From the NCBI RefSeq assembly GCF_000025945.1, contig NC_006138.1, positions 2,040,001-2,072,000 of the forward strand: 32,000 nucleotides of DNA, written 5' to 3'. The position numbers were made by a program, and so were the translations under genes. Origin of the DNA: Desulfotalea psychrophila LSv54 (GTDB lineage: Bacteria; Desulfobacterota; Desulfobulbia; Desulfobulbales; Desulfocapsaceae). The notes under the pieces are model-generated. The model was not told where the DNA came from. It searched no databases and saw only the letters and a program-made list of their open reading frames with translations. Below, one piece after another: positions 9,894 through 31,508 of this stretch. The first letter of the stretch is position 1; each line of letters starts with the position of its first letter.

Positions 9894-10162
9894 ATACCCA
9901 GGGATGGGTTTGTATGACGCGGTGCCAGGGATGGCAAGGAGCGGCAATGCCCTGTCCTTTAGCAAACACCCATGTTAGTCCAGAAAGCTGTGAAAGAATA
10001 ACAGCTGTCAGAAACGGCTGAACAGCAAAAGCATTTACCACAGAGACCACAAAGAACAGAGAGCCTTAAGACAAGTTATACCTTTACTACCGTTTCTGTT
10101 TATACTCTTTAAGCCCCTACTCTCCTGCACTGGCAAAAAAAACTCCTCCCGCCTGCTTCTCT

Positions 10163-10191
10163 TTCACAATTTTTTCTCTTATGTGTATAAT
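10163..10191 (+). promoter_or_regulatory. Sigma70-like promoter for the SIMPL gene
   Basis: TTCACA, 17-nt spacer, TATAAT. The -10 ends 80 nt upstream of the ATG at 10271. Confidence 0.4.
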
Positions 10192-10270
10192 AGGGAGGTC
10201 AAAGCTCTCCGAGGTTCATTTTGGCAGAGACCTAGTATTACCTTTAGTCTAAATATAAAAGAGGGAAAAA

Positions 10271-10960
10271 ATGCGAATACTTATGGCTGTCTGTATGGTT
10301 TTTCTTATGAGTCTCCACGCTCAGGCAGGTCCTCTCCCTGCGGCCCCGCATATCGTGGTTGCTGGTGGCTCCGAGGTGAAGGCAGTTCCTGATACTCTCT
10401 CTATGTCTCTGCAGATAATAGAGGTTGGCAGGGATGCTGAGCAGGCTCGAGCAGAGGTTGAAAAACGGGCACGGAAATTGATCGAGACCGCTAAGGGGCT
10501 GGGGATAAAGGCTGGGGATATTAACTCTGCTGCTCTCTCGGTTACCCCCAAATATAATTGGAAAAATAATCAGCAAATCTATACAGGTACCGAGGTTTCA
10601 CGGAGTGTAGCTCTGACCCTGCGTGATCTCTCTAAGTACGATGCCCTTATTCAGGCTGTGCTTAAGAGCAATGTTGTTCGTATCAACAGTACTCAACTCA
10701 GCTCTTCCAAGGATAAAGAGATTCAGGCAGAGGCCCTGCAAAAGGCGGTGGCCGATGCTAAGATTCAAGCTCAACTCTTGGTAGCGGGGCTTCCACAACA
10801 GGTAGGCGATGTTTATGCGATAAATGCCACATCTCGTCCCATGCAGGCAGCTCCTGCCATGTATCGTATGGCGGCGCAGGTAAATGACAGTGCCTTTGAA
10901 CCCGGCACCCTCTCTTATTCTAAATCTGTTCAGGTAGTATTTTATTTAATCAGTAGGTAA
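10271..10960 (+). CDS. SIMPL/DUF541-family periplasmic protein (YggE-like)
   Basis: Signal peptide MRILMAVCMVFLMSLHAQA, then VVAGGSEVKAVPDTLSMSLQI..DAEQARAEVEKRARKLIETAKGLGI.. and a C-terminal FEPGTLSYSKSVQVVF, typical of SIMPL proteins. Confidence 0.78.
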   Translation: MRILMAVCMVFLMSLHAQAGPLPAAPHIVVAGGSEVKAVPDTLSMSLQIIEVGRDAEQARAEVEKRARKLIETAKGLGIKAGDINSAALSVTPKYNWKNNQQIYTGTEVSRSVALTLRDLSKYDALIQAVLKSNVVRINSTQLSSSKDKEIQAEALQKAVADAKIQAQLLVAGLPQQVGDVYAINATSRPMQAAPAMYRMAAQVNDSAFEPGTLSYSKSVQVVFYLISR

Positions 10961-10969
10961 GGATGCCCT

Positions 10970-10997
10970 GGGCAGGAGGACACCAGCCCTCCTGCCC
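10970..10997 (+). terminator. Perfect 10-bp GC-rich hairpin between the SIMPL and transglycosylase genes (weak terminator or attenuator)
   Basis: GGGCAGGAGG-acaccagc-CCTCCTGCCC, with no clear T-tract after it. Confidence 0.4.
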
Positions 10998-11022
10998 TTC
11001 ACCTCTAGCCATATAGGTAACT

Positions 11023-12243
11023 ATGCCTCGTTTTTCAGCCTGCCTTCTTGCCCTCTTTATTCTGCTCTGCTCTCCGCTTCTCTCCACCTGGAGCCATGCC
11101 GATCAGGGCTTTGCCAGCTGGGTAGAGAACTTCTATCAACAGGAAGCACGGCCTGTAGGGATCAGCCGCCAGACCTTTGACAGTGTCTTCTCCCGGGTCA
11201 CGGCCCCGGAGCCAGTGGTCCTCAAAAAGGCGAAATATCAGCCAGAGTTTACCACGGAGATATGGGATTATCTGGATATGCGACTGACTCCCCTTGCCGT
11301 TAGCCGTGGCCAGAAGATGGCTAGGAAGTATAGTCATACTCTGCAGAAGATAGAGACGCAATTTGGCGTGAGCCGTTTTGTGGTGCTTGCCATCTGGTCC
11401 ATGGAATCTAATTACGGTGCTGTCCTCAGTAATAAGAGCCGACTTCACTATGTGCCGACAGCCCTTGCCACCCTTGCCTACCAGGACAAGAGACGGGCCC
11501 GCTTTGCTCGCAAACAGCTTATTGCCGTTTTGCAAATGGTGCAGGCAGGAGAGGTGCAACCTCAACAGCTGGTTGGCAGTTGGGCCGGAGCGATGGGTCA
11601 TACTCAGTTCATCCCCAGCAGTTACAGGGCCTATGCGGTCAGCCTGGATAAGAGGGGAGGCAGTGATATCTGGAATTCGGTTCCCGATGCCTTGGCCTCT
11701 GCCGCTAATCTACTCCATAAAAATGGCTGGCAGACAGGGCGAACCTGGGGCTATGAGGTCATGAGCCCTGGGAATGGCGAGTTGTACAGGGATAAGAGCA
11801 TGGCACTCGGTGAGTGGAGTCAAAAGGGTTTTAGGCGATCGGCCCATAGGCAGTTTCCCCATCTAGAGGAGAGAGCTTTTCTAAAGCTTCCTGGCGGAGG
11901 AAATAATCCGGGGTTTTTAGTAATTAAAAACTTTTCGGTTCTAAAAAGATATAATAACTCTGATTACTATGCCTTGGCCGTTGGTCTCCTGGCCGATCGC
12001 ATTGCCGGTTTCAGGGGTATGCAACAGAAATGGATTCTTCCCCTCGGTGCCCTTAGTCTGGAGGAGAGATATGAGAGCCAACGCCTGCTTCGCTCGCATG
12101 GGTACTATGCCGGAACTATCGATGGTAATCTTGGTCGTGGCAGTCGGGATGCCATTCGTCGCTTCCAGCAGGTTCGGGGGCTGAAGGATACCGGTATTGC
12201 CAATAAAGACATTTTGACCCTGTTACGCAAGGCCAGAAAATAG
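11023..12243 (+). CDS. Lytic murein transglycosylase (MltB/SLT_2 type) with a C-terminal peptidoglycan-binding domain
   Basis: Signal peptide; WSMESNYG (catalytic Glu context) and GAMGHTQFIPSSY; C-terminal LLRSHGYYAGTIDGNLGRGSRDAIRRFQ, which is PG_binding_1-like. Confidence 0.85.
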   Translation: MPRFSACLLALFILLCSPLLSTWSHADQGFASWVENFYQQEARPVGISRQTFDSVFSRVTAPEPVVLKKAKYQPEFTTEIWDYLDMRLTPLAVSRGQKMARKYSHTLQKIETQFGVSRFVVLAIWSMESNYGAVLSNKSRLHYVPTALATLAYQDKRRARFARKQLIAVLQMVQAGEVQPQQLVGSWAGAMGHTQFIPSSYRAYAVSLDKRGGSDIWNSVPDALASAANLLHKNGWQTGRTWGYEVMSPGNGELYRDKSMALGEWSQKGFRRSAHRQFPHLEERAFLKLPGGGNNPGFLVIKNFSVLKRYNNSDYYALAVGLLADRIAGFRGMQQKWILPLGALSLEERYESQRLLRSHGYYAGTIDGNLGRGSRDAIRRFQQVRGLKDTGIANKDILTLLRKARK

Positions 12244-25476: not shown

Positions 25477-25897
25477 ATGAAAAAAATGATGCTGATAGGC
25501 GAGACTCATGCCGGTAAGAGTTCTCTGATCAAGGCCCTCTCCGGGCAGGAGTTTCAGCCTCGCAGGGCCATGGCCCTGCAGTACTTTGGCCCCTTTATCA
25601 ACACTCCGGGAGAGTTTATAGAAAACCACTTTTTCTTTCCCGCCCTGATAACCACCTCGGCTGACTGTCATGTCCTGGCCATGGTTCAGGATGCAAGTAG
25701 CCGGAGCAGTCTCTTTCCACCCCTCTTGCCTCGATGTTCAACCGCAGGGGGTCGGGCTGATCACCAAGATTGACAGTCCCCATGCCAATGTCGAGCGAGC
25801 CAAACTCTTCTTAAAAAACGCCGGTATCAAAGAGACTCTCTGCTGTAGCAGTATAACGGGGGCCGGATTGGAAGAGATTCGTCAGCTGATCCAGTAG
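25477..25897 (+). pseudogene. EutP/PduV-family small GTPase, interrupted by two apparent 1-nt frameshifts at homopolymers
   Basis: P-loop MLIGETHAGKSSL and INTPGEF are in frame 1. LASMFNRR is in a second frame and VGLITKID..GAGLEEIRQLIQ* in the third. The switches coincide with C4 (25720-25723) and G5 (25747-25751). Adding one base to each gives a 140-aa EutP-like protein. Confidence 0.72.
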
Positions 25898-26051: not shown

Positions 26052-26148
26052 TTTTGTCACAGAAAATGTAACAACTTAAATCAATAATATTAATTAATTA
26101 TACCAGTTCGACGTTTTTTTCTGATAAAGAAAGTGTAATAATTTTTAT
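26052..26148. repeat. ~97-bp direct repeat, copy A (downstream of the Fic gene)
   Basis: 41 of 43 nt identical to 27522-27564, then a 17-nt divergent core of equal length, then cgtttttttctgataaagaaa identical and a partly matching tail. The offset is a constant 1470 nt. Confidence 0.9.
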
Positions 26149-26388
26149 CTTGGCTAAGAGGCTATCGGCTGTAGAGGTTCCTAGCTTTTTTCTAGCGAGG
26201 TGAGAGCTGTTCTCTGGCCTCTGCCACTTTCTTGAGAGAAGGGTGCTGAGACGGTATTTTCTTTATTTCACATATAATATCGACGTATGCTGAAAATCTA
26301 ATGGCACCAATGTTATTTGTAATGACCCTTACCTGTGGTGCAGTTGCTGTATGTGGCGCTTCCGGCTGAACCTCTTTCCTTCCTCTAC

Positions 26389-27510
26389 TTAACCTAGAGC
26401 TCGATAGTTGAGTTCATATTTCTTGGCATCATCTTCCTTAAGAAGATTCTTTTCTAACAGTTTTTTGATATCCCTTCTGGCTGTCTGTTCGCTCGCCTTT
26501 TGGTAGAGAATTTTAAAGGGATAGTTGTCCATCAGGTCTTTAAGGGTAAAGGCAATGGGATTATCCAGCAGTAAAGAGAGCAGGGCAAACTGTCTTTTGC
26601 TTATTGCCCTGTTTTTCTGTTCATGGGTGTAAAAATCTCTTAGGGCAAATCTTCTGATCAGAAAGGTTATTGACTCTTTTATATCCATGAGGCTTTCCAC
26701 TACCCCTTCAAGCATAAACTGGATAAAGGGGGTGACATCTTTTCTGTTTTTAATGCTTTTGGAAAATGCTGCATAGTAATCATCTACATTTCGATAGTAG
26801 TAGTTTGAGAGTTCTTTCGGAACGTATTTTATATTGGCAGAATGGAGAAGGCATGATTCAAGAAATCTGGCAGTTCTGCCATTGCCATCCCAAAAAGGAT
26901 GGATGAGGCAGAGATGATAATGGGCCAGTGCTGCCCTGAGAAAGGGGTTGAGACCTAAAATTTCTTCGCTGTTGAGCCAGGCCACGAACTCTTTCATGAG
27001 CATTTTTACATCTGCCAGTATTTTAGGTGGTCTGTATACGCCACCGTGCCCTTTGTCGCCGACAATAACCTCACCATTTCTATAGGCCCCTGGAATATTG
27101 TACTCATGTGGAATTTCCGTGGTAATGATCCTATGCATGGTTTTGATAAAATCTTCACTAACAATCAGGGGGCCATTTTGAGGCTCCATCTCCGAGAGTA
27201 TCTGGTATAGGGAGAGTAGGTTTTTGATCTCCTGCTTATCCTTTTGGGTGTAGAGAGGCATCTCTTCACCGGCCGCGATCTTTTTGACCCCCTCCTCTTC
27301 AATGGGATTTCCCTCAATCATGGCTGTTCCGGAAATAGAGCTATACATGATCTTTGGATCCAGCCTTGCCGACATTCCGGGAAGAATTGGCAGATCCGTG
27401 ACGGTCTCATAGAGCAGATTGGCCTTAAAGAGCAGGTTATCGACTATGACCATCTCTGTTTCGTGGCAAAAATAAAACTTCCCTGATTTATAGGTTAAAA
27501 TGTCTTTCAT
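26389..27510 (-). CDS. Fic-family protein (class II auto-inhibited type) with a C-terminal winged-helix-like domain
   Basis: HPFWDGNGRTAR Fic motif (26866-26901). N-terminal inhibitory-type motif TAMIEG, i.e. [S/T]xxxE[G/N], at 27310-27327. Start chosen at MKDILTYK (27510, RBS GAGAGGG). The longer ORF-track N-terminus runs through the repeat/promoter. Confidence 0.85.
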   Translation of the reverse strand: MKDILTYKSGKFYFCHETEMVIVDNLLFKANLLYETVTDLPILPGMSARLDPKIMYSSISGTAMIEGNPIEEEGVKKIAAGEEMPLYTQKDKQEIKNLLSLYQILSEMEPQNGPLIVSEDFIKTMHRIITTEIPHEYNIPGAYRNGEVIVGDKGHGGVYRPPKILADVKMLMKEFVAWLNSEEILGLNPFLRAALAHYHLCLIHPFWDGNGRTARFLESCLLHSANIKYVPKELSNYYYRNVDDYYAAFSKSIKNRKDVTPFIQFMLEGVVESLMDIKESITFLIRRFALRDFYTHEQKNRAISKRQFALLSLLLDNPIAFTLKDLMDNYPFKILYQKASEQTARRDIKKLLEKNLLKEDDAKKYELNYRALG

Positions 27511-27521
27511 TTTGCCCTCTC

Positions 27522-27618
27522 TTTTGTCATAGAAAATGTAACAACTTAAATCAATTATATTAATAGCTTGCAGTGTGCCGGCGTTTTTTTCTGATAAAGA
27601 AAATGTAACAACTTTCGT
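27522..27618. repeat. ~97-bp direct repeat, copy B (Fic promoter/operator region)
   Basis: Contains two identical 17-nt boxes AGAAAATGTAACAACTT (27531-27547 and 27598-27614). On the Fic strand a TTGATT-17-TATGAC promoter overlaps box 1. Confidence 0.9.
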
Positions 27619-27677
27619 CATGAAAGTAATCATCTTTTTTGTCCCCTCCTCGTAGCACTCGAATTTATCTTGGGAGC

Positions 27678-27694
27678 GCGGACGTCTCGTCCGC
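27678..27694. repeat. GC-rich perfect hairpin GCGGACG-tct-CGTCCGC
   Basis: 7-bp perfect stem in an intergenic segment upstream of Fic. Single copy in this window. Confidence 0.5.
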
Positions 27695-27855
27695 AAAGCT
27701 TGCCATCCTGTAATGCCCAATTTGATTAGCCTAATTATTTCATCAAAGATGTTTTGGGGCAAGATTGAGCCAAGGGGGATTTAGTGGAGATGGAGAGTCT
27801 GATCGTCTTTGTTGGAGATTCAGGGGTTTTAATTTGCCTCGGCTTTTTTAGAGAA

Positions 27856-27881
27856 GATGGGCATGCTTTGCTTTGCCCATC
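27856..27881. repeat. Hairpin GATGGGCA-(10 nt)-TGCCCATC
   Basis: 8-bp perfect stem in intergenic DNA. Single copy in this window. Confidence 0.5.
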
Positions 27882-28018
27882 CTACATCCTCGCCAGTGGC
27901 CAGATTCTGGCTTTAGGCATTAAACCGATAGGCATTTGCTATGCTGAATGAATCTAATCTCTACTTTTTTTGAAAAGGATATAGGGGGGTAGGCGGCTTG
28001 GCACCGTCCTCCGGACCT

Positions 28019-28363
28019 TTATTGGGGATAGTATTCCCCTGTGCGTTGATTGATTGCCCCACTATGATTATCCCTACTATTTTTAGTTATGATATCTGGA
28101 TGTTCAGCTCCGTTTTCATGCTCAATCCCAGACGGATTAAACTTCATGTCAGCACCCTGTTGTTCTTTTATGAGCTTATCATGGGCCTGATCCAGCATGC
28201 GCTGACTTTCCTCTGCACTATCTGCAAGGCGGTAGCCGGGGCGAGTTTCGCCGCTTTGTCTCATATGCTCTTCTGGTTCGGCTTTCGGCTCCACTCATGT
28301 TTTTGTATGGGCCGTGGATGATAACAAAACTGCTGCCAGTGCTAAAACGATAAACCCTTTCAT
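28019..28363 (-). pseudogene. Small secreted acidic protein with an in-frame TGA after the signal peptide (pseudogene, read-through, or two-part ORF)
   Basis: ATG at 28363 with a strong RBS (AGAGGGGGGG). MKGFIVLALAAVLLSSTAHTKT, then TGA (28295-28297), then in the same frame VEPKAEPEEHMRQSGE...GEYYPQ*. Confidence 0.35.
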
Positions 28364-28779
28364 GTCCACCCCCCTCTATGATTGACCATCCCCCTGTTGC
28401 TGTCATTTTAGATTTTATCATAAGATAACCCACCTTTTAAGGTTAGGGAAAAATCCCCTGATTTACAATGGCTCTTTTTGGGGGGAGGAGTTGAGTGGCC
28501 GATGCCACTCTTCCATGCCGATCTCTTCGGCCTTGCCAGGATTTCCCCTCCCACTCCAGGCCACTCCCTGACTCAAGCAGATATAAAACTACTGGCAGAA
28601 GATCATTGTCAGGAGTATGGTTGGCATGTTTGTAAGTGTACGATAGAACTGGCGATATCTGGTCTTCTTGTGAGGACGGAATGTTTCCATGTTTGATGGA
28701 TGATATCGGGGTAGGTGGAAAGTCTTGGTCGTATGGGGACTACTGCTGTAATCAGGAGGGACGTTCCTTCAACAAGAGA

Positions 28780-28808
28780 TTGGCATCACGACCAATTTGA
28801 TTGATAAT
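28780..28808 (+). promoter_or_regulatory. Sigma70-like promoter for the AT-rich cassette
   Basis: TTGGCA, 17-nt spacer, GATAAT. The -10 ends 31 nt upstream of the ATG at 28839. Confidence 0.45.
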
Positions 28809-28838
28809 ATTTAAGAGCAGGGTCTGGAATCTTGAGAT

Positions 28839-29915
28839 ATGAAAAAAGTTAAGAACAAAATGCAATATAATCGGTTATCAAAAAGACGATTTGAAAAAAA
28901 AATAAAGAGAAAAAAACATAAAAAAGAGCTAATAAAATTAGCTATACAACAAAAAAAAAGCATTTTGAATGTAAAAAGAAATAAATTAAAATTACATAAA
29001 AAAGCAAATGCTGAAGACTTTATCGAACTAAAGCCACCATCGCATTTTAGTATTATTGAGAACCCAAATGAAACTTTAACTTTTTTTGAAAGTTTAGAAA
29101 GTAACCTTCTTAACTACGATCCAATTTATATTAACATGTCGGAAATAAGCAGAATGACTGTAGATGCATTGTTATATTATATTTCAATTTTACAGCATAT
29201 TAAAACAAAGCTTAGTGCCTATATTTTAAAAGGTTCATTTCCCGAAGATGAAGAAACTTTAACATTGATGAAGCGATCCGGCTTTTTAAGGTATTTTAAA
29301 ACATCTGAAGATAATATTAATACTCATAGAGATTATGTTGAAATAAAAAGTGGTAATATTGCAGATAATCAAGTTGTTAAAGATATATGTCTTTTTGTTA
29401 TGGAGAAAATGAAAGTCGGTAGGGTAAAAACACAAAAATTGTATGATATTATTTTTGAAATGATGTTAAACACAAAACAACATGCCTATAATGCTAATAC
29501 GAATAAATATGATAATTGGTTATTGTTTTTGAAGTTTAATCCGGATAAATCTAATATAGAGTTTATTTTTTTGGATAAGGGCTTTGGTATTCCTCAAACA
29601 GTAAGAAAAAATAAATTAGAAATAGCCGTAAAATGGTTTTCTAAAATAGGGATAACTGAATTTAGCGAGACTGATTTAGTTGATTCAGCATTAAAGGGAG
29701 CATTTAGAACTAAAACGGAAAAAGGATATAGAGGGAAAGGTTTACCTAAAATAAATCAATATTTTGAAAATGGATATATAAAATCATTAAATATTATATC
29801 TAAAAAAGCTTGTATAACTGCAGAAAACAAACATGATTTGGAAAAAGAAATAATCGGTACACTATATTCCTGGAAAATCACAAAGGATAGTATAAATGGC
29901 AACAATAATTATTAG
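28839..29915 (+). CDS. GHKL-superfamily ATPase / RsbW-SpoIIAB-like serine-kinase-type protein with a Lys/Arg-rich N-terminal tail
   Basis: N-box FEMMLNTKQHAY, G1 box FLDKGFGIP and G2 box YRGKGLPKI. The first ~55 aa are extremely basic (KKVKNK..KRRFEKKIKRKKHKKE..KRNKLKLHKK). The middle segment (IYINMSEISRMTVDALLYYISIL) looks STAS-like. Confidence 0.68.
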   Translation: MKKVKNKMQYNRLSKRRFEKKIKRKKHKKELIKLAIQQKKSILNVKRNKLKLHKKANAEDFIELKPPSHFSIIENPNETLTFFESLESNLLNYDPIYINMSEISRMTVDALLYYISILQHIKTKLSAYILKGSFPEDEETLTLMKRSGFLRYFKTSEDNINTHRDYVEIKSGNIADNQVVKDICLFVMEKMKVGRVKTQKLYDIIFEMMLNTKQHAYNANTNKYDNWLLFLKFNPDKSNIEFIFLDKGFGIPQTVRKNKLEIAVKWFSKIGITEFSETDLVDSALKGAFRTKTEKGYRGKGLPKINQYFENGYIKSLNIISKKACITAENKHDLEKEIIGTLYSWKITKDSINGNNNY

Positions 29916-30213
29916 TGAAACATTTACAGATGCACCTGGTGGAAGGTTGCGTTCCGATGGCCCAAAGTCTGGAGAAGAATTCAGAAATGATTTTTTGATA
30001 CCGGTTTTTGACAAGCTAACTGAATCAGAACAGATAACTATTGATTTAGACGGTTGTTTTGGATACGCAACCAGTTTTTTAGAAGAAGTTTTTGGAGGGT
30101 TATCAAGAGAATACGGAGCAAAAAAAGTTTTGGAAAAATTAAAATTTAAATCTGATGAAGAACCTCTTTTAATAACAGAAATTCAGGAGTATATAAAAGA
30201 TGCTTCGAAATAA
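29896..30213 (+). CDS. STAS-like small protein (DUF4325-type)
   Basis: 105 aa. ..QITIDLDGCFGYATSFLEEVFGGL.. follows the STAS-like 'v.lDf.gv...tsSFldE.fg' pattern. Overlaps the ATPase gene by 20 nt. RBS AAGGA. Confidence 0.6.
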   Translation: MATIIISETFTDAPGGRLRSDGPKSGEEFRNDFLIPVFDKLTESEQITIDLDGCFGYATSFLEEVFGGLSREYGAKKVLEKLKFKSDEEPLLITEIQEYIKDASK

Positions 30214-30508
30214 AGTAGGGATTTTTCTTGTTTTTTTAATTTTAGTAATCACCATTGATTTGTTAACAATCAATTTTCTGAAATGGGACTTTCTAAGTGT
30301 TAATTTTTTTAATTGTCGATTAATTGAAATTTTAAGGCTACTTGTAATGATATTTTTAAGTTGTTACGTTGCTTATTGGGTTTCAATTAAAAGTAATGCA
30401 ATTCAAAAAAAGAAGGATCTTTGTTTGGTTTTGATAAATGAGGGTAACTTGATTCTATCAGAACAAAAAGAGTTAACACTTTTCGTTTACACAGCAAACA
30501 AGCAATAA
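30200..30508 (+). CDS. Small membrane protein with two predicted TM helices
   Basis: VGIFLVFLILVITIDLLTINFL and LIEILRLLVMIFLSCYVAYWVSI. Overlaps the STAS-like gene by 14 nt. RBS AGGAG. Confidence 0.55.
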   Translation: MLRNKVGIFLVFLILVITIDLLTINFLKWDFLSVNFFNCRLIEILRLLVMIFLSCYVAYWVSIKSNAIQKKKDLCLVLINEGNLILSEQKELTLFVYTANKQ

Positions 30509-30545
30509 AGATGATGGCAAGTTAGTTTTAAGTGGCTTTAGGCGA

Positions 30546-30761
30546 ATGAACAATAAATTAGATGCTATAAATATATTGTGCAGCAAAATTGATTCCAAGC
30601 TATCTGCTAGTACATTAATTACAAATTTTAAAATAATAAAAGAGCAGTTTGGGGATAGTTATATGGCAGGTTTTGCACTTGAAGATTCAAAAAAAATAGA
30701 AAAAAATTTTGATAAATTTGAAAAACTGTTTGATGACTTAAGGATTCAATTGTTAATTTAA
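30546..30761 (+). CDS. 71-aa helical protein of unknown function (may be the displaced C-terminus of the 2-TM protein)
   Basis: Same AT-rich composition as the cassette. Its frame is open upstream to 30477 and overlaps the end of the preceding ORF. Confidence 0.4.
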   Translation: MNNKLDAINILCSKIDSKLSASTLITNFKIIKEQFGDSYMAGFALEDSKKIEKNFDKFEKLFDDLRIQLLI

Positions 30762-30770
30762 GTATTCTCA

Positions 30771-30828
30771 GCTAACAAAACGTTGCACCGGATTCGCTGA
30801 AGCCTGTCGGTGAACTACCCGTCATACC
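30771..30828 (+). other. attC-like imperfect hairpin at the 3' end of the AT-rich cassette (decayed R' box)
   Basis: AGCTAAC-aaaac-GTT[G]CACCG...CGGTGAAC-taccc-GTCATAC. It has the same layout as classical attC (R'' RYYYAAC, 5-nt spacer, L''/L' with one extrahelical base after GTT), but R' reads GTCATAC rather than GTTRRRY. Confidence 0.3.
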
Positions 30829-30898
30829 TATTATTGATTACTATGATTGATCGAGTTGTCAGCTAGGCAGTGGGTATTTTCTTTCATCAGCAAGAGAA

Positions 30899-30920
30899 GA
30901 TGCAGTAAGATCTTTGCATC
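30899..30920 (-). terminator. Hairpin downstream of the ACP gene (candidate terminator on the minus strand)
   Basis: GATGCA-(10 nt)-TGCATC, followed on the minus strand by ttctctt. Confidence 0.35.
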
Positions 30921-30941
30921 TCCTCTATTCTGGTTATTAGG

Positions 30942-30981
30942 CTAGCATCTAGCATCTAGCATCTAGCATCTAGCATCTAGC
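30942..30981. repeat. Heptanucleotide tandem repeat (CTAGCAT) x5 plus a partial copy
   Basis: Directly read: ctagcat ctagcat ctagcat ctagcat ctagcat ctagc. The last partial unit supplies the TAG stop of the minus-strand ACP gene. Confidence 0.95.
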
Positions 30982-31243
30982 CGATTTCCTGCGAAATAAA
31001 GTCGGCCAAACTAGCAATGGATTCGAGGACCCTACGGCTGGTGTCTTCGCCGCCGATGCGGATATCGTACTGCTTCTGGACCAGGAAGACTATCTCGACG
31101 GCGTCGAGGGAGTCGAGGCCGAGGGGTGAGTCCGGGCCGATGAGTTGGGCATCACTGGGGAAATCGTCGGGGGCATCCATCACCTTGCAGGCATCAATAA
31201 TTAGTAGCTTCAGATTCCTTTCTAACTCTGCTCTCTTCTCCAT
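30977..31243 (-). CDS. Acyl carrier protein-like (phosphopantetheine attachment site)
   Basis: 88 aa, acidic, with LGLDSLDAVEIVF (DSL Ser motif). Confidence 0.82.
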   Translation of the reverse strand: MEKRAELERNLKLLIIDACKVMDAPDDFPSDAQLIGPDSPLGLDSLDAVEIVFLVQKQYDIRIGGEDTSRRVLESIASLADFISQEIG

Positions 31244-31508
31244 ATCTTTCCTTAAAAACGGCCCCTCTCAGAGGTGGCACAATATAAATTTATTATAAAA
31301 TAGCCTACCTGTAGGCTTGAAAACCATTGTCTAAAGGGTGTCTTTGAAAAATGAGACTTTTCGATAAATATCAGCTAAGCCCCGACTGCGAGGCATTTGG
31401 AAAATATTACCACAGGCATCGTTGATATCGGAGTCTACGCTTACCTCCGAGGATAAAATTTTTCATACAACGCAGAGATTTGAAGAAGAGACCATTTTTC
31501 GAGGCTCC

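Follow-up and report, generated by a model that had tools for sequence, protein, structure and literature searches.

The stretch of DNA considered here, called the window, is 32 kb from Desulfotalea psychrophila LSv54. Close to its right-hand end lies a short cassette of abruptly AT-rich genes, and the question raised by this locus is what these genes are and what they might do. Measured in 300-nt windows, the G+C content is 0.24-0.34 across positions ~28800-30800 against ~0.47 on either side. For the cassette itself (28839-30761, 1.9 kb) it is 0.274, compared with 0.477 for the remaining window, which bears out the sharp drop reported in the first-pass annotation of this sequence. The trough is filled by four open reading frames (ORFs) on the plus strand, 28839-29915, 29896-30213, 30200-30508 and 30546-30761, with overlaps of 20 nt between ORF 1 and ORF 2 and of 14 nt between ORF 2 and ORF 3. 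The ORFs and their overlaps are as the first-pass annotation described them, but they correspond to three genes, not to the four it counted. The product of the first of these is 100% identical to a hypothetical protein of D. psychrophila. Comparison with other genomes shows that the cassette is a three-gene mobile module, carried in prophages and genomic islands of many phyla.

In the loci examined, the order of the three genes is constant. Custom profiles for all three proteins were applied to 20 loci from metagenomes and species-representative genomes, and in every one (20/20) the order is gene 1-gene 2-gene 3, contiguous or overlapping. These loci come from Pirellulales (Planctomycetota), several families of Bacillota, Paludibacteraceae (Bacteroidota) and, with D. 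psychrophila, Desulfobacterota. The same order is found among the called genes of five further loci, and the triplet is present in all three IMG/VR viral contigs that have enough downstream sequence. Marinobacter phage AS1 and a Helicobacter prophage have analogous triplets with a divergent gene 1. In both, gene 2 shares the motifs P-G-x-R-Y...S-G-E-x-F-R and S-F-L, and the third protein is small, a single N-terminal transmembrane helix being followed by a helical tail. A similar arrangement is seen in the gene table of Francisella phage KIRK, which lists a 293-amino acid hypothetical protein, a DUF4325 protein and a transmembrane protein between the CI repressor and the integrase (PMC7924643). 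The loci that bear the triplet span at least five phyla (Desulfobacterota, Bacillota, Bacteroidota, Planctomycetota and Proteobacteria). A test of co-occurrence had been proposed when the cassette was first noticed; its outcome is that the three genes keep a strict order across phyla, in prophages as well as in integrative elements.

The DNA around the related cassettes is typically of mobile character and differs from locus to locus. An integrase, a helix-turn-helix (HTH) repressor and an ImmA-like peptidase directly adjoin the cassette in loci L007 and L029/L030. In L003 it lies between lysis genes and an integrase, and in phage AS1 it is found beside Cro/CI. Other copies are accompanied by a Tn916-type Xis/Int pair (L031), by an integrase, a transposase and a serine recombinase (L027/L028), or reside in islands that adjoin smpB and carry one integrase-like and one Rep-like gene (L001/L002). 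Phage_integrase is the commonest Pfam family near the cassettes: of 130 proteins encoded in the neighbourhood at 17 loci, 5 match it. In 19 of the 20 loci the cassette has a higher A+T content than the DNA around it. Horizontal acquisition, suggested earlier, is supported by carriage on prophages and integrative elements across phyla. The same 130 neighbours include matches to PADLOC models for AbiH (2), MzaA (2), PDC-S51, PDC-S04/SoFic, a DRT-type helicase, mad2/3, LmuB and KwaA.

Two of these islands deserve a separate remark. In L001 (5602-7981) and L002 (5448-8001), which hold the two closest homologues of the cassette, a REP_ORF2-G2P-like gene for a replication protein and a weak tyrosine-integrase-like gene stand directly upstream; the islands have the look of small integrative elements. 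Immediately after the L002 cassette, a gene (9992-11056) gives a weak match to a CAP12/Pycsar-type TIR domain (E-value 2.6e-4, below the Pfam cut-off), which hints at a neighbouring defence gene. Remnants of the flanking integrase and Rep genes of L001/L002 were sought in the window by tblastn, and none was found; the three cassette genes are all that the window shares with the related loci in this search.

Gene 1 (28839-29915) encodes a STAS-GHKL serine-kinase-like protein of 358 amino acids ('K'). Residues 1-57 (28839-29009) are predicted to form a single long helix rich in Lys and Arg. Residues ~60-155 (29016-29303) form an internal STAS-like alpha/beta domain, recognized in the model and through weak profile and Foldseek matches, and residues ~165-350 (29331-29888) a GHKL (Bergerat) ATP-binding/kinase domain that contains the N, G1, G2 and G3 boxes. 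The AlphaFold2 (AF2) model has a mean predicted local distance difference test score (pLDDT) of 83.7 and a predicted template modelling (TM) score of 0.80. In it, the helix covers residues 2-57, the STAS-like domain is beta-alpha-beta, and the ATP lid of the Bergerat fold is disordered. When the model is compared with the Protein Data Bank (PDB) by Foldseek, the top match is SpoIIAB (1tid_C, E-value 5e-4, target-normalised TM-score 0.69, probability 1.0), followed by CheA P4, SiaB, HK853 and the RsbV/RsbW complex. Against a viral structure library the top match is an unnamed phage protein, J7KH07 (E-value 2.5e-7), and phage 'histidine kinase-like ATPases' come next. The internal STAS-like segment has a weak profile match to the SpoIIAA-like protein 4hyl (E-value 1.6) and a Foldseek match to RsbV (6m37_C, E-value 0.056). 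At the level of sequence, apart from this weak SpoIIAA-like match, comparison of gene 1 with the PDB returned only noise.

The family to which gene 1 belongs is large. Residues 64-353 match positions 7-294 of the 304 positions of the phage profile phrog_3364 (E-value 3.6e-35), of which gene 1 is a member. A word-indexed search retrieved 12 relatives, and a profile of these 12, used in an exhaustive HMMER search of representatives at 50% identity, gave 3887 family members at E-values of 1e-3 or less and 1070 at 1e-30 or less. Nearly all of the best 150 are 310-400 amino acids long, the few shorter ones being N-terminally incomplete. Alignment of 46 diverse members, together with the distant phage versions and VapK (see below), reveals absolute conservation of E207, N211 and H215 in the N box, D246, G248 and G250 in G1, R298, G299 and G301 in G2, and G340 in G3. 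Of residues 1-60 of gene 1, 25 are Lys or Arg, and a basic bias at the N-terminus is a trait of the family (16-27 Lys plus Arg against 1-9 Asp plus Glu). The N, G1 and G2 kinase motifs, a Lys/Arg-rich segment of ~55 residues, an internal STAS-like segment and a GHKL fold had all been read from this gene before. The motifs prove to be invariant across the family, the basic segment is located at the N-terminus, and the model and its structural matches back both the STAS-like segment and the fold.

Thr107 of gene 1 (29157-29159), in the STAS-like domain, is Thr or Ser in most family members. It stands directly before helix 108-124 and precedes the invariant D109, in the same position as the phosphorylated serine of SpoIIAA-type STAS proteins; VapK has Arg or Leu opposite it. 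This residue could be a site of cis-autophosphorylation, a pseudosubstrate site, or a mere helix cap.

Gene 2 (29896-30213) encodes a DUF4325 STAS-like protein of 105 amino acids ('S'), a candidate kinase substrate and antitoxin. Its match to the Pfam DUF4325 model (PF14213) has an E-value of 1.6e-14 and 53.7 bits, the cut-off being 23, so that the free-standing STAS-like protein recognized in the first-pass annotation is confirmed by the profile searches proposed there. No HTH or winged-helix match was found in gene 2, DUF4325 being its sole domain. Searches of the PDB with the single sequence or with a profile gave no meaningful match; the VapS-VapC entry 9Z7O was not among the matches, being either absent from that copy of the database or too distant. 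Within the motif G-Y-x-x-S-F-L-E-E-x-F-G-G, nearly invariant among 18 family members, Ser60 (codon at 30073-30075) is the candidate phospho-acceptor. It is invariant in 18/18 members, is also found in the phage AS1 and Helicobacter prophage versions, and sits at the start of helix 2. A phospho-acceptor had been suspected in the segment YATSF; the invariant hydroxyl residue is indeed there, as S60, whereas its neighbour T59 varies between T, S and P. The C-terminal helix carries a second conserved motif, S-x-x-E-P...Y (S86, E89, P90 and Y99).

A side observation concerns the phage family phrog_5816, which gene 2 matches at positions 341-439 of 441 (E-value 6e-14). Since the match is confined to the C-terminal end, some phages carry the DUF4325 module attached to a larger N-terminal part. 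That part is not matched by gene 1 and may represent a further effector, or sensor, with which the STAS module is paired.

Genes 3 and 4 had been described as separate, the former encoding a protein with two transmembrane helices and the latter a helical peptide. They are instead one gene, split by a frameshift. At all homologous loci a single protein, 172-193 (~185) amino acids long, is the product of the gene that follows the DUF4325 gene. ORF 3 of the window (30200-30508), which specifies two predicted transmembrane helices and the start of a cytoplasmic helix before a premature stop, aligns to the first ~100-110 residues of the full-length homologues. The frame of ORF 4, extended upstream to 30507 (30507-30761), specifies the C-terminal helical bundle and aligns to residues ~103-185 (KDDGKLVLSGFRRMNNKL versus KDEGKIVLSGFRRLSNKL). 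Both halves match the same gene 3 profile, with E-values of 8e-26 and 2.3e-11. Joined, they cover the homologous protein over its whole length, which makes the two 'genes' one gene with a frameshift. The tblastn high-scoring segment pairs of the two halves lie in different frames and switch at 30495-30505. Together with the comparison of frames this places the frameshift zone at 30488-30507, where frame 2 reads ...FVYTANKQ and then a stop codon, and frame 0 reads ...QQTSNKDDGKLVLSGFRRMNNKL, continuing the homologue sequence ...KDEGKIVLSGFRRLSNKL.

Programmed +1 frameshifting at CAA-UAA-A was considered and rejected. This is not a recognised slippery sequence, gapless alignment to L002 puts the shift a few codons upstream, and a second split gene nearby points to mutation or sequencing error. 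That second gene, on the plus strand at the end of a bacterial microcompartment (BMC)/choline-lyase cluster, encodes a PduV/EutP-type GTPase and is split into ORFs 25477-25773 and 25670-25897. These cover positions 1-85 and 91-141 of the Pfam profile and lie ~5 kb upstream of the gene 3 frameshift. Two apparent frameshifts within 5 kb suggest local pseudogenisation or sequencing errors in the genome record. Judged by its sequence, the D. psychrophila cassette is probably inactive, except if the shift stems from an error in sequencing or if the fragments can still function jointly. With its effector gene out of frame, this copy may be a decaying remnant.

The hydrophobic segments encoded by ORF 3 of the window are located at residues ~1-29 and 36-65, and the intact protein has two hydrophobic helices near its N-terminus. 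The AF2 model of the closest intact homologue, P0160 (pLDDT 81.7), is all-helical, with the second transmembrane helix running on into a helical bundle (helices 102-129, 136-155 and 159-184). Kinship with four-helix bundles was rejected since the structural matches are generic (best E-value 0.12). Searches of Pfam, PHROGs and PADLOC with the gene 3 homologues gave weak, inconsistent matches only, and no credible family. Identity between distant family members is 12-26%; to judge from these sequences, gene 3 evolves fast.

The nearest described relative of the cassette is VapKSC, reported together with CapKS by Chambers et al. (EMBO J 2026; PMC13373217). In VapKSC, the STAS-GHKL kinase VapK is switched on by single-stranded DNA (ssDNA) and phosphorylates the STAS antitoxin VapS on S48. 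The phosphorylation frees the PIN toxin VapC, and the whole constitutes a kinase-controlled toxin-antitoxin system that protects against phage Bas42 (PMC13373217). VapS consists of a STAS domain together with a short inhibitory C-terminal helix (PMC13373217). The cassette resembles VapKSC in being a three-gene operon with the same order, that is, kinase, small DUF4325/STAS protein and effector. Gene 2 and VapS each have a conserved serine at helix 2 and a short C-terminal helix, both score above the Pfam cut-off for DUF4325 (VapS with an E-value of 2.7e-17), and both systems are carried by mobile or defence-type DNA. That VapS is a DUF4325 protein fits an older observation, according to which DUF4325 genes are linked to one clade of PIN genes (PMC5499597).

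The VapK and VapS sequences used for comparison were taken from the AlphaFold files of PMC13373217. The profile of the gene 1 family and VapK can be aligned over 232 columns that cover both the STAS and the GHKL domain (hhalign E-value 2.8e-6, probability 88%), and hmmsearch gives 15 bits (E-value 6e-7 for two targets). The catalytic motifs are all in register, the invariant residues of the N, G1, G2 and G3 boxes being common to both proteins. By profile comparison, then, gene 1 is a distant homologue of VapK. VapK would nevertheless fall outside the 3887 family matches and, because it scores just 15 bits on the profile, the gene 1 family is regarded as separate from it.

The two systems differ in their effectors. 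VapC is a PIN nuclease, whereas the effector of the cassette is a membrane protein of ~185 residues that combines two transmembrane helices with a helical bundle. Gene 3 has no PIN or other Pfam match, and Foldseek returned no nuclease for it. A transmembrane effector is not mentioned in PMC13373217. Gene 1 also has an extra basic N-terminal helix of ~57 residues. In addition, the ssDNA-stacking aromatic residue in the STAS-GHKL groove (CapK W68, VapK F54; PMC13373217) does not appear to be conserved, so the trigger of gene 1 may differ.

A second comparison can be made with CapK-CapS. CapK is an HTH-STAS-GHKL protein activated by ssDNA, and CapS is a STAS-winged-helix repressor that is phosphorylated on a conserved serine; the pair controls CBASS, Bub or Thoeris operons (PMC13373217). 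As in the cassette, the kinase has an N-terminal extension followed by STAS and then GHKL, and the gene directly after it encodes a STAS-domain substrate with a conserved serine. In gene 1, however, the extension is one continuous basic helix (2-57) rather than an HTH. Gene 2, with its 105 residues of DUF4325 only, lacks the winged-helix DNA-binding domain. The pair is followed by a single membrane-protein gene and not by an immune operon, in the window as well as in the related loci.

Lambda RexAB-type prophage exclusion provides an analogy of another kind, namely a prophage-borne cassette beside the immunity region that combines a cytoplasmic sensor with a small membrane protein. As to position, the cassette is located beside Cro/CI in AS1 and beside an integrase, HTH repressor and ImmA-like peptidase in L007/L029. 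No sequence or fold relationship to RexAB was detected, the analogy itself not having been tested, and the kinase and STAS sensing chemistry is different.

The first-pass annotation recognised no named system in the cassette. This holds for PADLOC-DB v2.0.0, a database older than VapKSC, in which the gene 1-4 ORFs match nothing at an E-value of 1 or less; nor did full-length gene 3 homologues, gene 1 of phage AS1, VapK or VapS give a meaningful match there. The PADLOC run proposed with that annotation thus returned no catalogued defence model for the cassette proteins, and the cassette does not have the PIN toxin that defines VapC. It no longer holds in the wider sense, since CapKS and VapKSC have been named relatives since 2026. 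Full-text searches of a literature library found no description of a triplet made of a kinase, a DUF4325 protein and a membrane protein; what came nearest was the paper on CapKS and VapKSC, besides passing mentions of DUF4325.

Taken with moderate confidence, and by analogy with the logic of VapKSC, the cassette would be a kinase-gated membrane-effector module of the toxin-antitoxin or abortive-infection type. Gene 1 would be a sensor kinase responding to a cue linked to infection or DNA damage. Once triggered, it would phosphorylate gene 2 at Ser60. Unphosphorylated gene 2 would restrain gene 3, presumably by interacting with it, and phosphorylation would set gene 3 free. The freed protein, with its two N-terminal transmembrane helices and cytoplasmic helical bundle, would then harm membrane function and bring about cell arrest or death. 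The outcome might be abortive infection, superinfection exclusion or addiction, in each case serving the carrier prophage or island. What the sequences and models themselves show is the domain architecture, the conservation of the catalytic residues and of Ser60, the gene order, the carriage on mobile elements and the remote kinship with VapK and VapS. We infer the kinase activity, the contact between genes 2 and 3, the toxicity of gene 3, the trigger and the anti-phage effect from the parallel with VapKSC. A partner-switching sensor wired to a membrane effector on acquired DNA had been suggested earlier. The kinase, the STAS protein, the membrane protein and a presumed role in conflict are retained from that suggestion. 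Sigma-type partner switching is not supported, and phosphorylation-triggered release of a toxin from a STAS antitoxin is the better analogy.

Several observations weigh against a VapKSC-like module. The similarity between gene 1 and VapK is distant, at ~16% identity, and gene 1 has no match among Pfam, NCBIfam or PADLOC models. The gene 2 profile does not match VapS significantly on its own (E-value 0.07), and in ungapped alignments S48 of VapS pairs with T59, the residue that precedes S60. VapK F54 aligns to R105 (hhalign) or to M106 (MAFFT), both in variable, non-aromatic columns, although at 16% identity these placements are not reliable to the residue. The fold of gene 3 has no significant Foldseek match (best E-value 0.12, to generic four-helix bundles), and in D. 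psychrophila the effector gene is frameshifted. No integrase or other mobility gene adjoins the cassette in the 32-kb window. The counts of defence genes among the neighbours come without a background control, and some of these matches (IetA/TRIP13) are probably housekeeping AAA proteins such as FtsH.

Alternative explanations have to be considered. Gene 3 is small and has one or two transmembrane helices, as have holins and superinfection exclusion (Sie) proteins. The cassette might therefore tune the life cycle of its carrier phage, with gene 3 acting as a holin or antiholin, a lysis-timing protein or an exclusion protein that blocks injection, and no killing of the cell. The L003 cassette, which follows endolysin-like and Phage_holin_5_2 genes on the same strand, and its position within the Cro/CI immunity region of phage AS1 are in keeping with such a role. 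Most loci, however, have no adjoining lysis genes, and the cassette also occurs in non-phage islands (Tn916-like, or with a serine recombinase/transposase) and alone in the chromosome, as in the window. Moreover, the gene 3 homologues match no holin family in Pfam or PHROGs, and we regard this explanation as unlikely. Far less probable still is ordinary partner switching as in RsbW/RsbV or SpoIIAB/SpoIIAA, whose output would be a sigma factor or another housekeeping function encoded elsewhere. To be sure, gene 1 has the fold of anti-sigma kinases, and gene 2 is a STAS protein like the antagonists of these. The best structural matches of the kinase domain are 1tid, 1l0o, 1th8 and 6m37, helix 2 of the STAS partner has a serine at its N-terminus, and one family member bears the source name 'anti-sigma regulatory factor (Ser/Thr protein kinase)'. 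By sequence and model, the pair thus has the appearance of a GHKL serine kinase and a STAS antagonist with a candidate serine. But no sigma factor or PP2C phosphatase adjoins the cassette in the window, as was noticed at the outset. Among the 130 neighbours of the 17 loci only two sigma-70-type proteins were found, and no phosphatase family was matched twice or more. Gene 1 has its own internal STAS domain and basic helix, and the invariant third partner is a membrane protein. The contexts, finally, are prophages, elements resembling integrative and conjugative elements, and islands, which differ by locus and have a foreign base composition. A recurring sigma factor or phosphatase, which the first-pass annotation had named, in a core-genome setting, as the sign of ordinary stress signalling, was not seen in the related loci.

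It is also conceivable, if rather improbable, that gene 1 is no kinase at all. Many GHKL-domain proteins are non-kinase ATPases, and gene 1 could be an ATP-driven clamp or chaperone, or a nucleic-acid-binding switch for which gene 2 serves as an adaptor, through nucleotide-dependent binding and not Ser60 phosphorylation. E207, which we take to be at the general-base position of GHKL ATPases, is invariant in the family, but this catalytic Glu, like the Asn, is also found in SpoIIAB-type kinases. Nucleic-acid binding is suggested by the strongly basic helix at the N-terminus, and the one-residue offset between Ser60 and VapS S48 in ungapped alignments would also be compatible with a non-kinase function. 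On the other hand, the closest structures to gene 1 are the serine kinases SpoIIAB, RsbW and SiaB and the catalytic ATP-binding (CA) domains of histidine kinases, and not MutL, GyrB, Hsp90 or MORC. Helix 2 of gene 2 has an invariant serine at its start, a feature common to all characterised kinase-STAS pairs (PMC13373217). A kinase that gates a membrane effector through gene 2 remains the reading that we favour.

The expression signals and flanks of the D. psychrophila cassette may be summarized briefly. A candidate promoter, TTGGCA-17-GATAAT (28780-28808, plus strand), is located 31 nt 5' of the gene 1 start. It had been pointed out before and is the top plus-strand consensus match (10/12) in a scan of 27700-31400, yet such sites are hardly more frequent in this AT-rich stretch than expected by chance (17 seen versus 12.1 +/- 3.1). 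A weak terminator-like hairpin found by pattern scan alone lies 3' of the cassette (30898-30921, plus strand); terminator-like sites near the cassette are at chance level (5 seen versus 3.3 expected). An attC-like site had been reported beside the cassette and was not reproduced. The region just 3' of it (30755-30900) folds no better than shuffled sequence (z = +0.61) and contains neither a significant inverted repeat nor an Rfam match, and an integron gene cassette with a 3' attC is not supported on these grounds. Neither a tRNA gene nor an Rfam match was found anywhere in the window.

Upstream of the cassette the choline/BMC-type cluster ends, and a Fic gene follows on the opposite strand. 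This gene (26389-27762, minus strand) matches the PADLOC SoFic model (E-value 4e-48) as well as Pfam Fic, and is the nearest conflict-type gene, 1.1 kb from the cassette. Its listed TTG start is probably too far upstream. Direct repeats of ~100 nt (26052-26152 and 27522-27631; families D1/D5), 84-95% identical and 1470 nt apart, bracket the gene and may mark a regulatory region that was duplicated, or else the termini of an inserted unit. The ~1.05 kb between the Fic gene and the cassette (27763-28838) has an ordinary G+C content (~0.47). It contains no ORF above 107 amino acids and no Rfam match, its four longest ORFs (at least 70 amino acids) have no Pfam match, and it shows no similarity to the genes that flank the cassette in other loci. 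Downstream, a convergent gene for a carrier protein (30977-31243, PP-binding) follows. Between its stop codon and the cassette there is a perfect 7-nt tandem repeat, CTAGCAT x 5.7 (30942-30981; 100% matches, score 80).

Because its effector gene is broken, the D. psychrophila locus is mostly a pointer to the family. The kinase family, with its 1070 representatives at E-values of 1e-30 or less, has no entry in Pfam, NCBIfam or PADLOC, and its members are carried by temperate phages and islands. It may be, and we put this forward tentatively as somewhat short of probable, that the cassettes form a large, broad and hitherto undescribed family of prophage and island immune or addiction systems. 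In these, a VapK-like kinase would gate a new membrane effector through DUF4325 phosphorylation, using a basic nucleic-acid-binding helix and a trigger that is maybe other than ssDNA. Kinase-STAS control of immune effectors was first described in 2026, and the cassette would add a membrane effector as its third output. The family would offer a handle on the modularity of the sensor, on non-ssDNA triggers and on the role of small helical-bundle membrane proteins. If this is true, the kinase-STAS pair would be a general, swappable sensor of immunity, connected to a repressor in CapKS, to a nuclease in VapKSC and to a membrane effector in the cassette.

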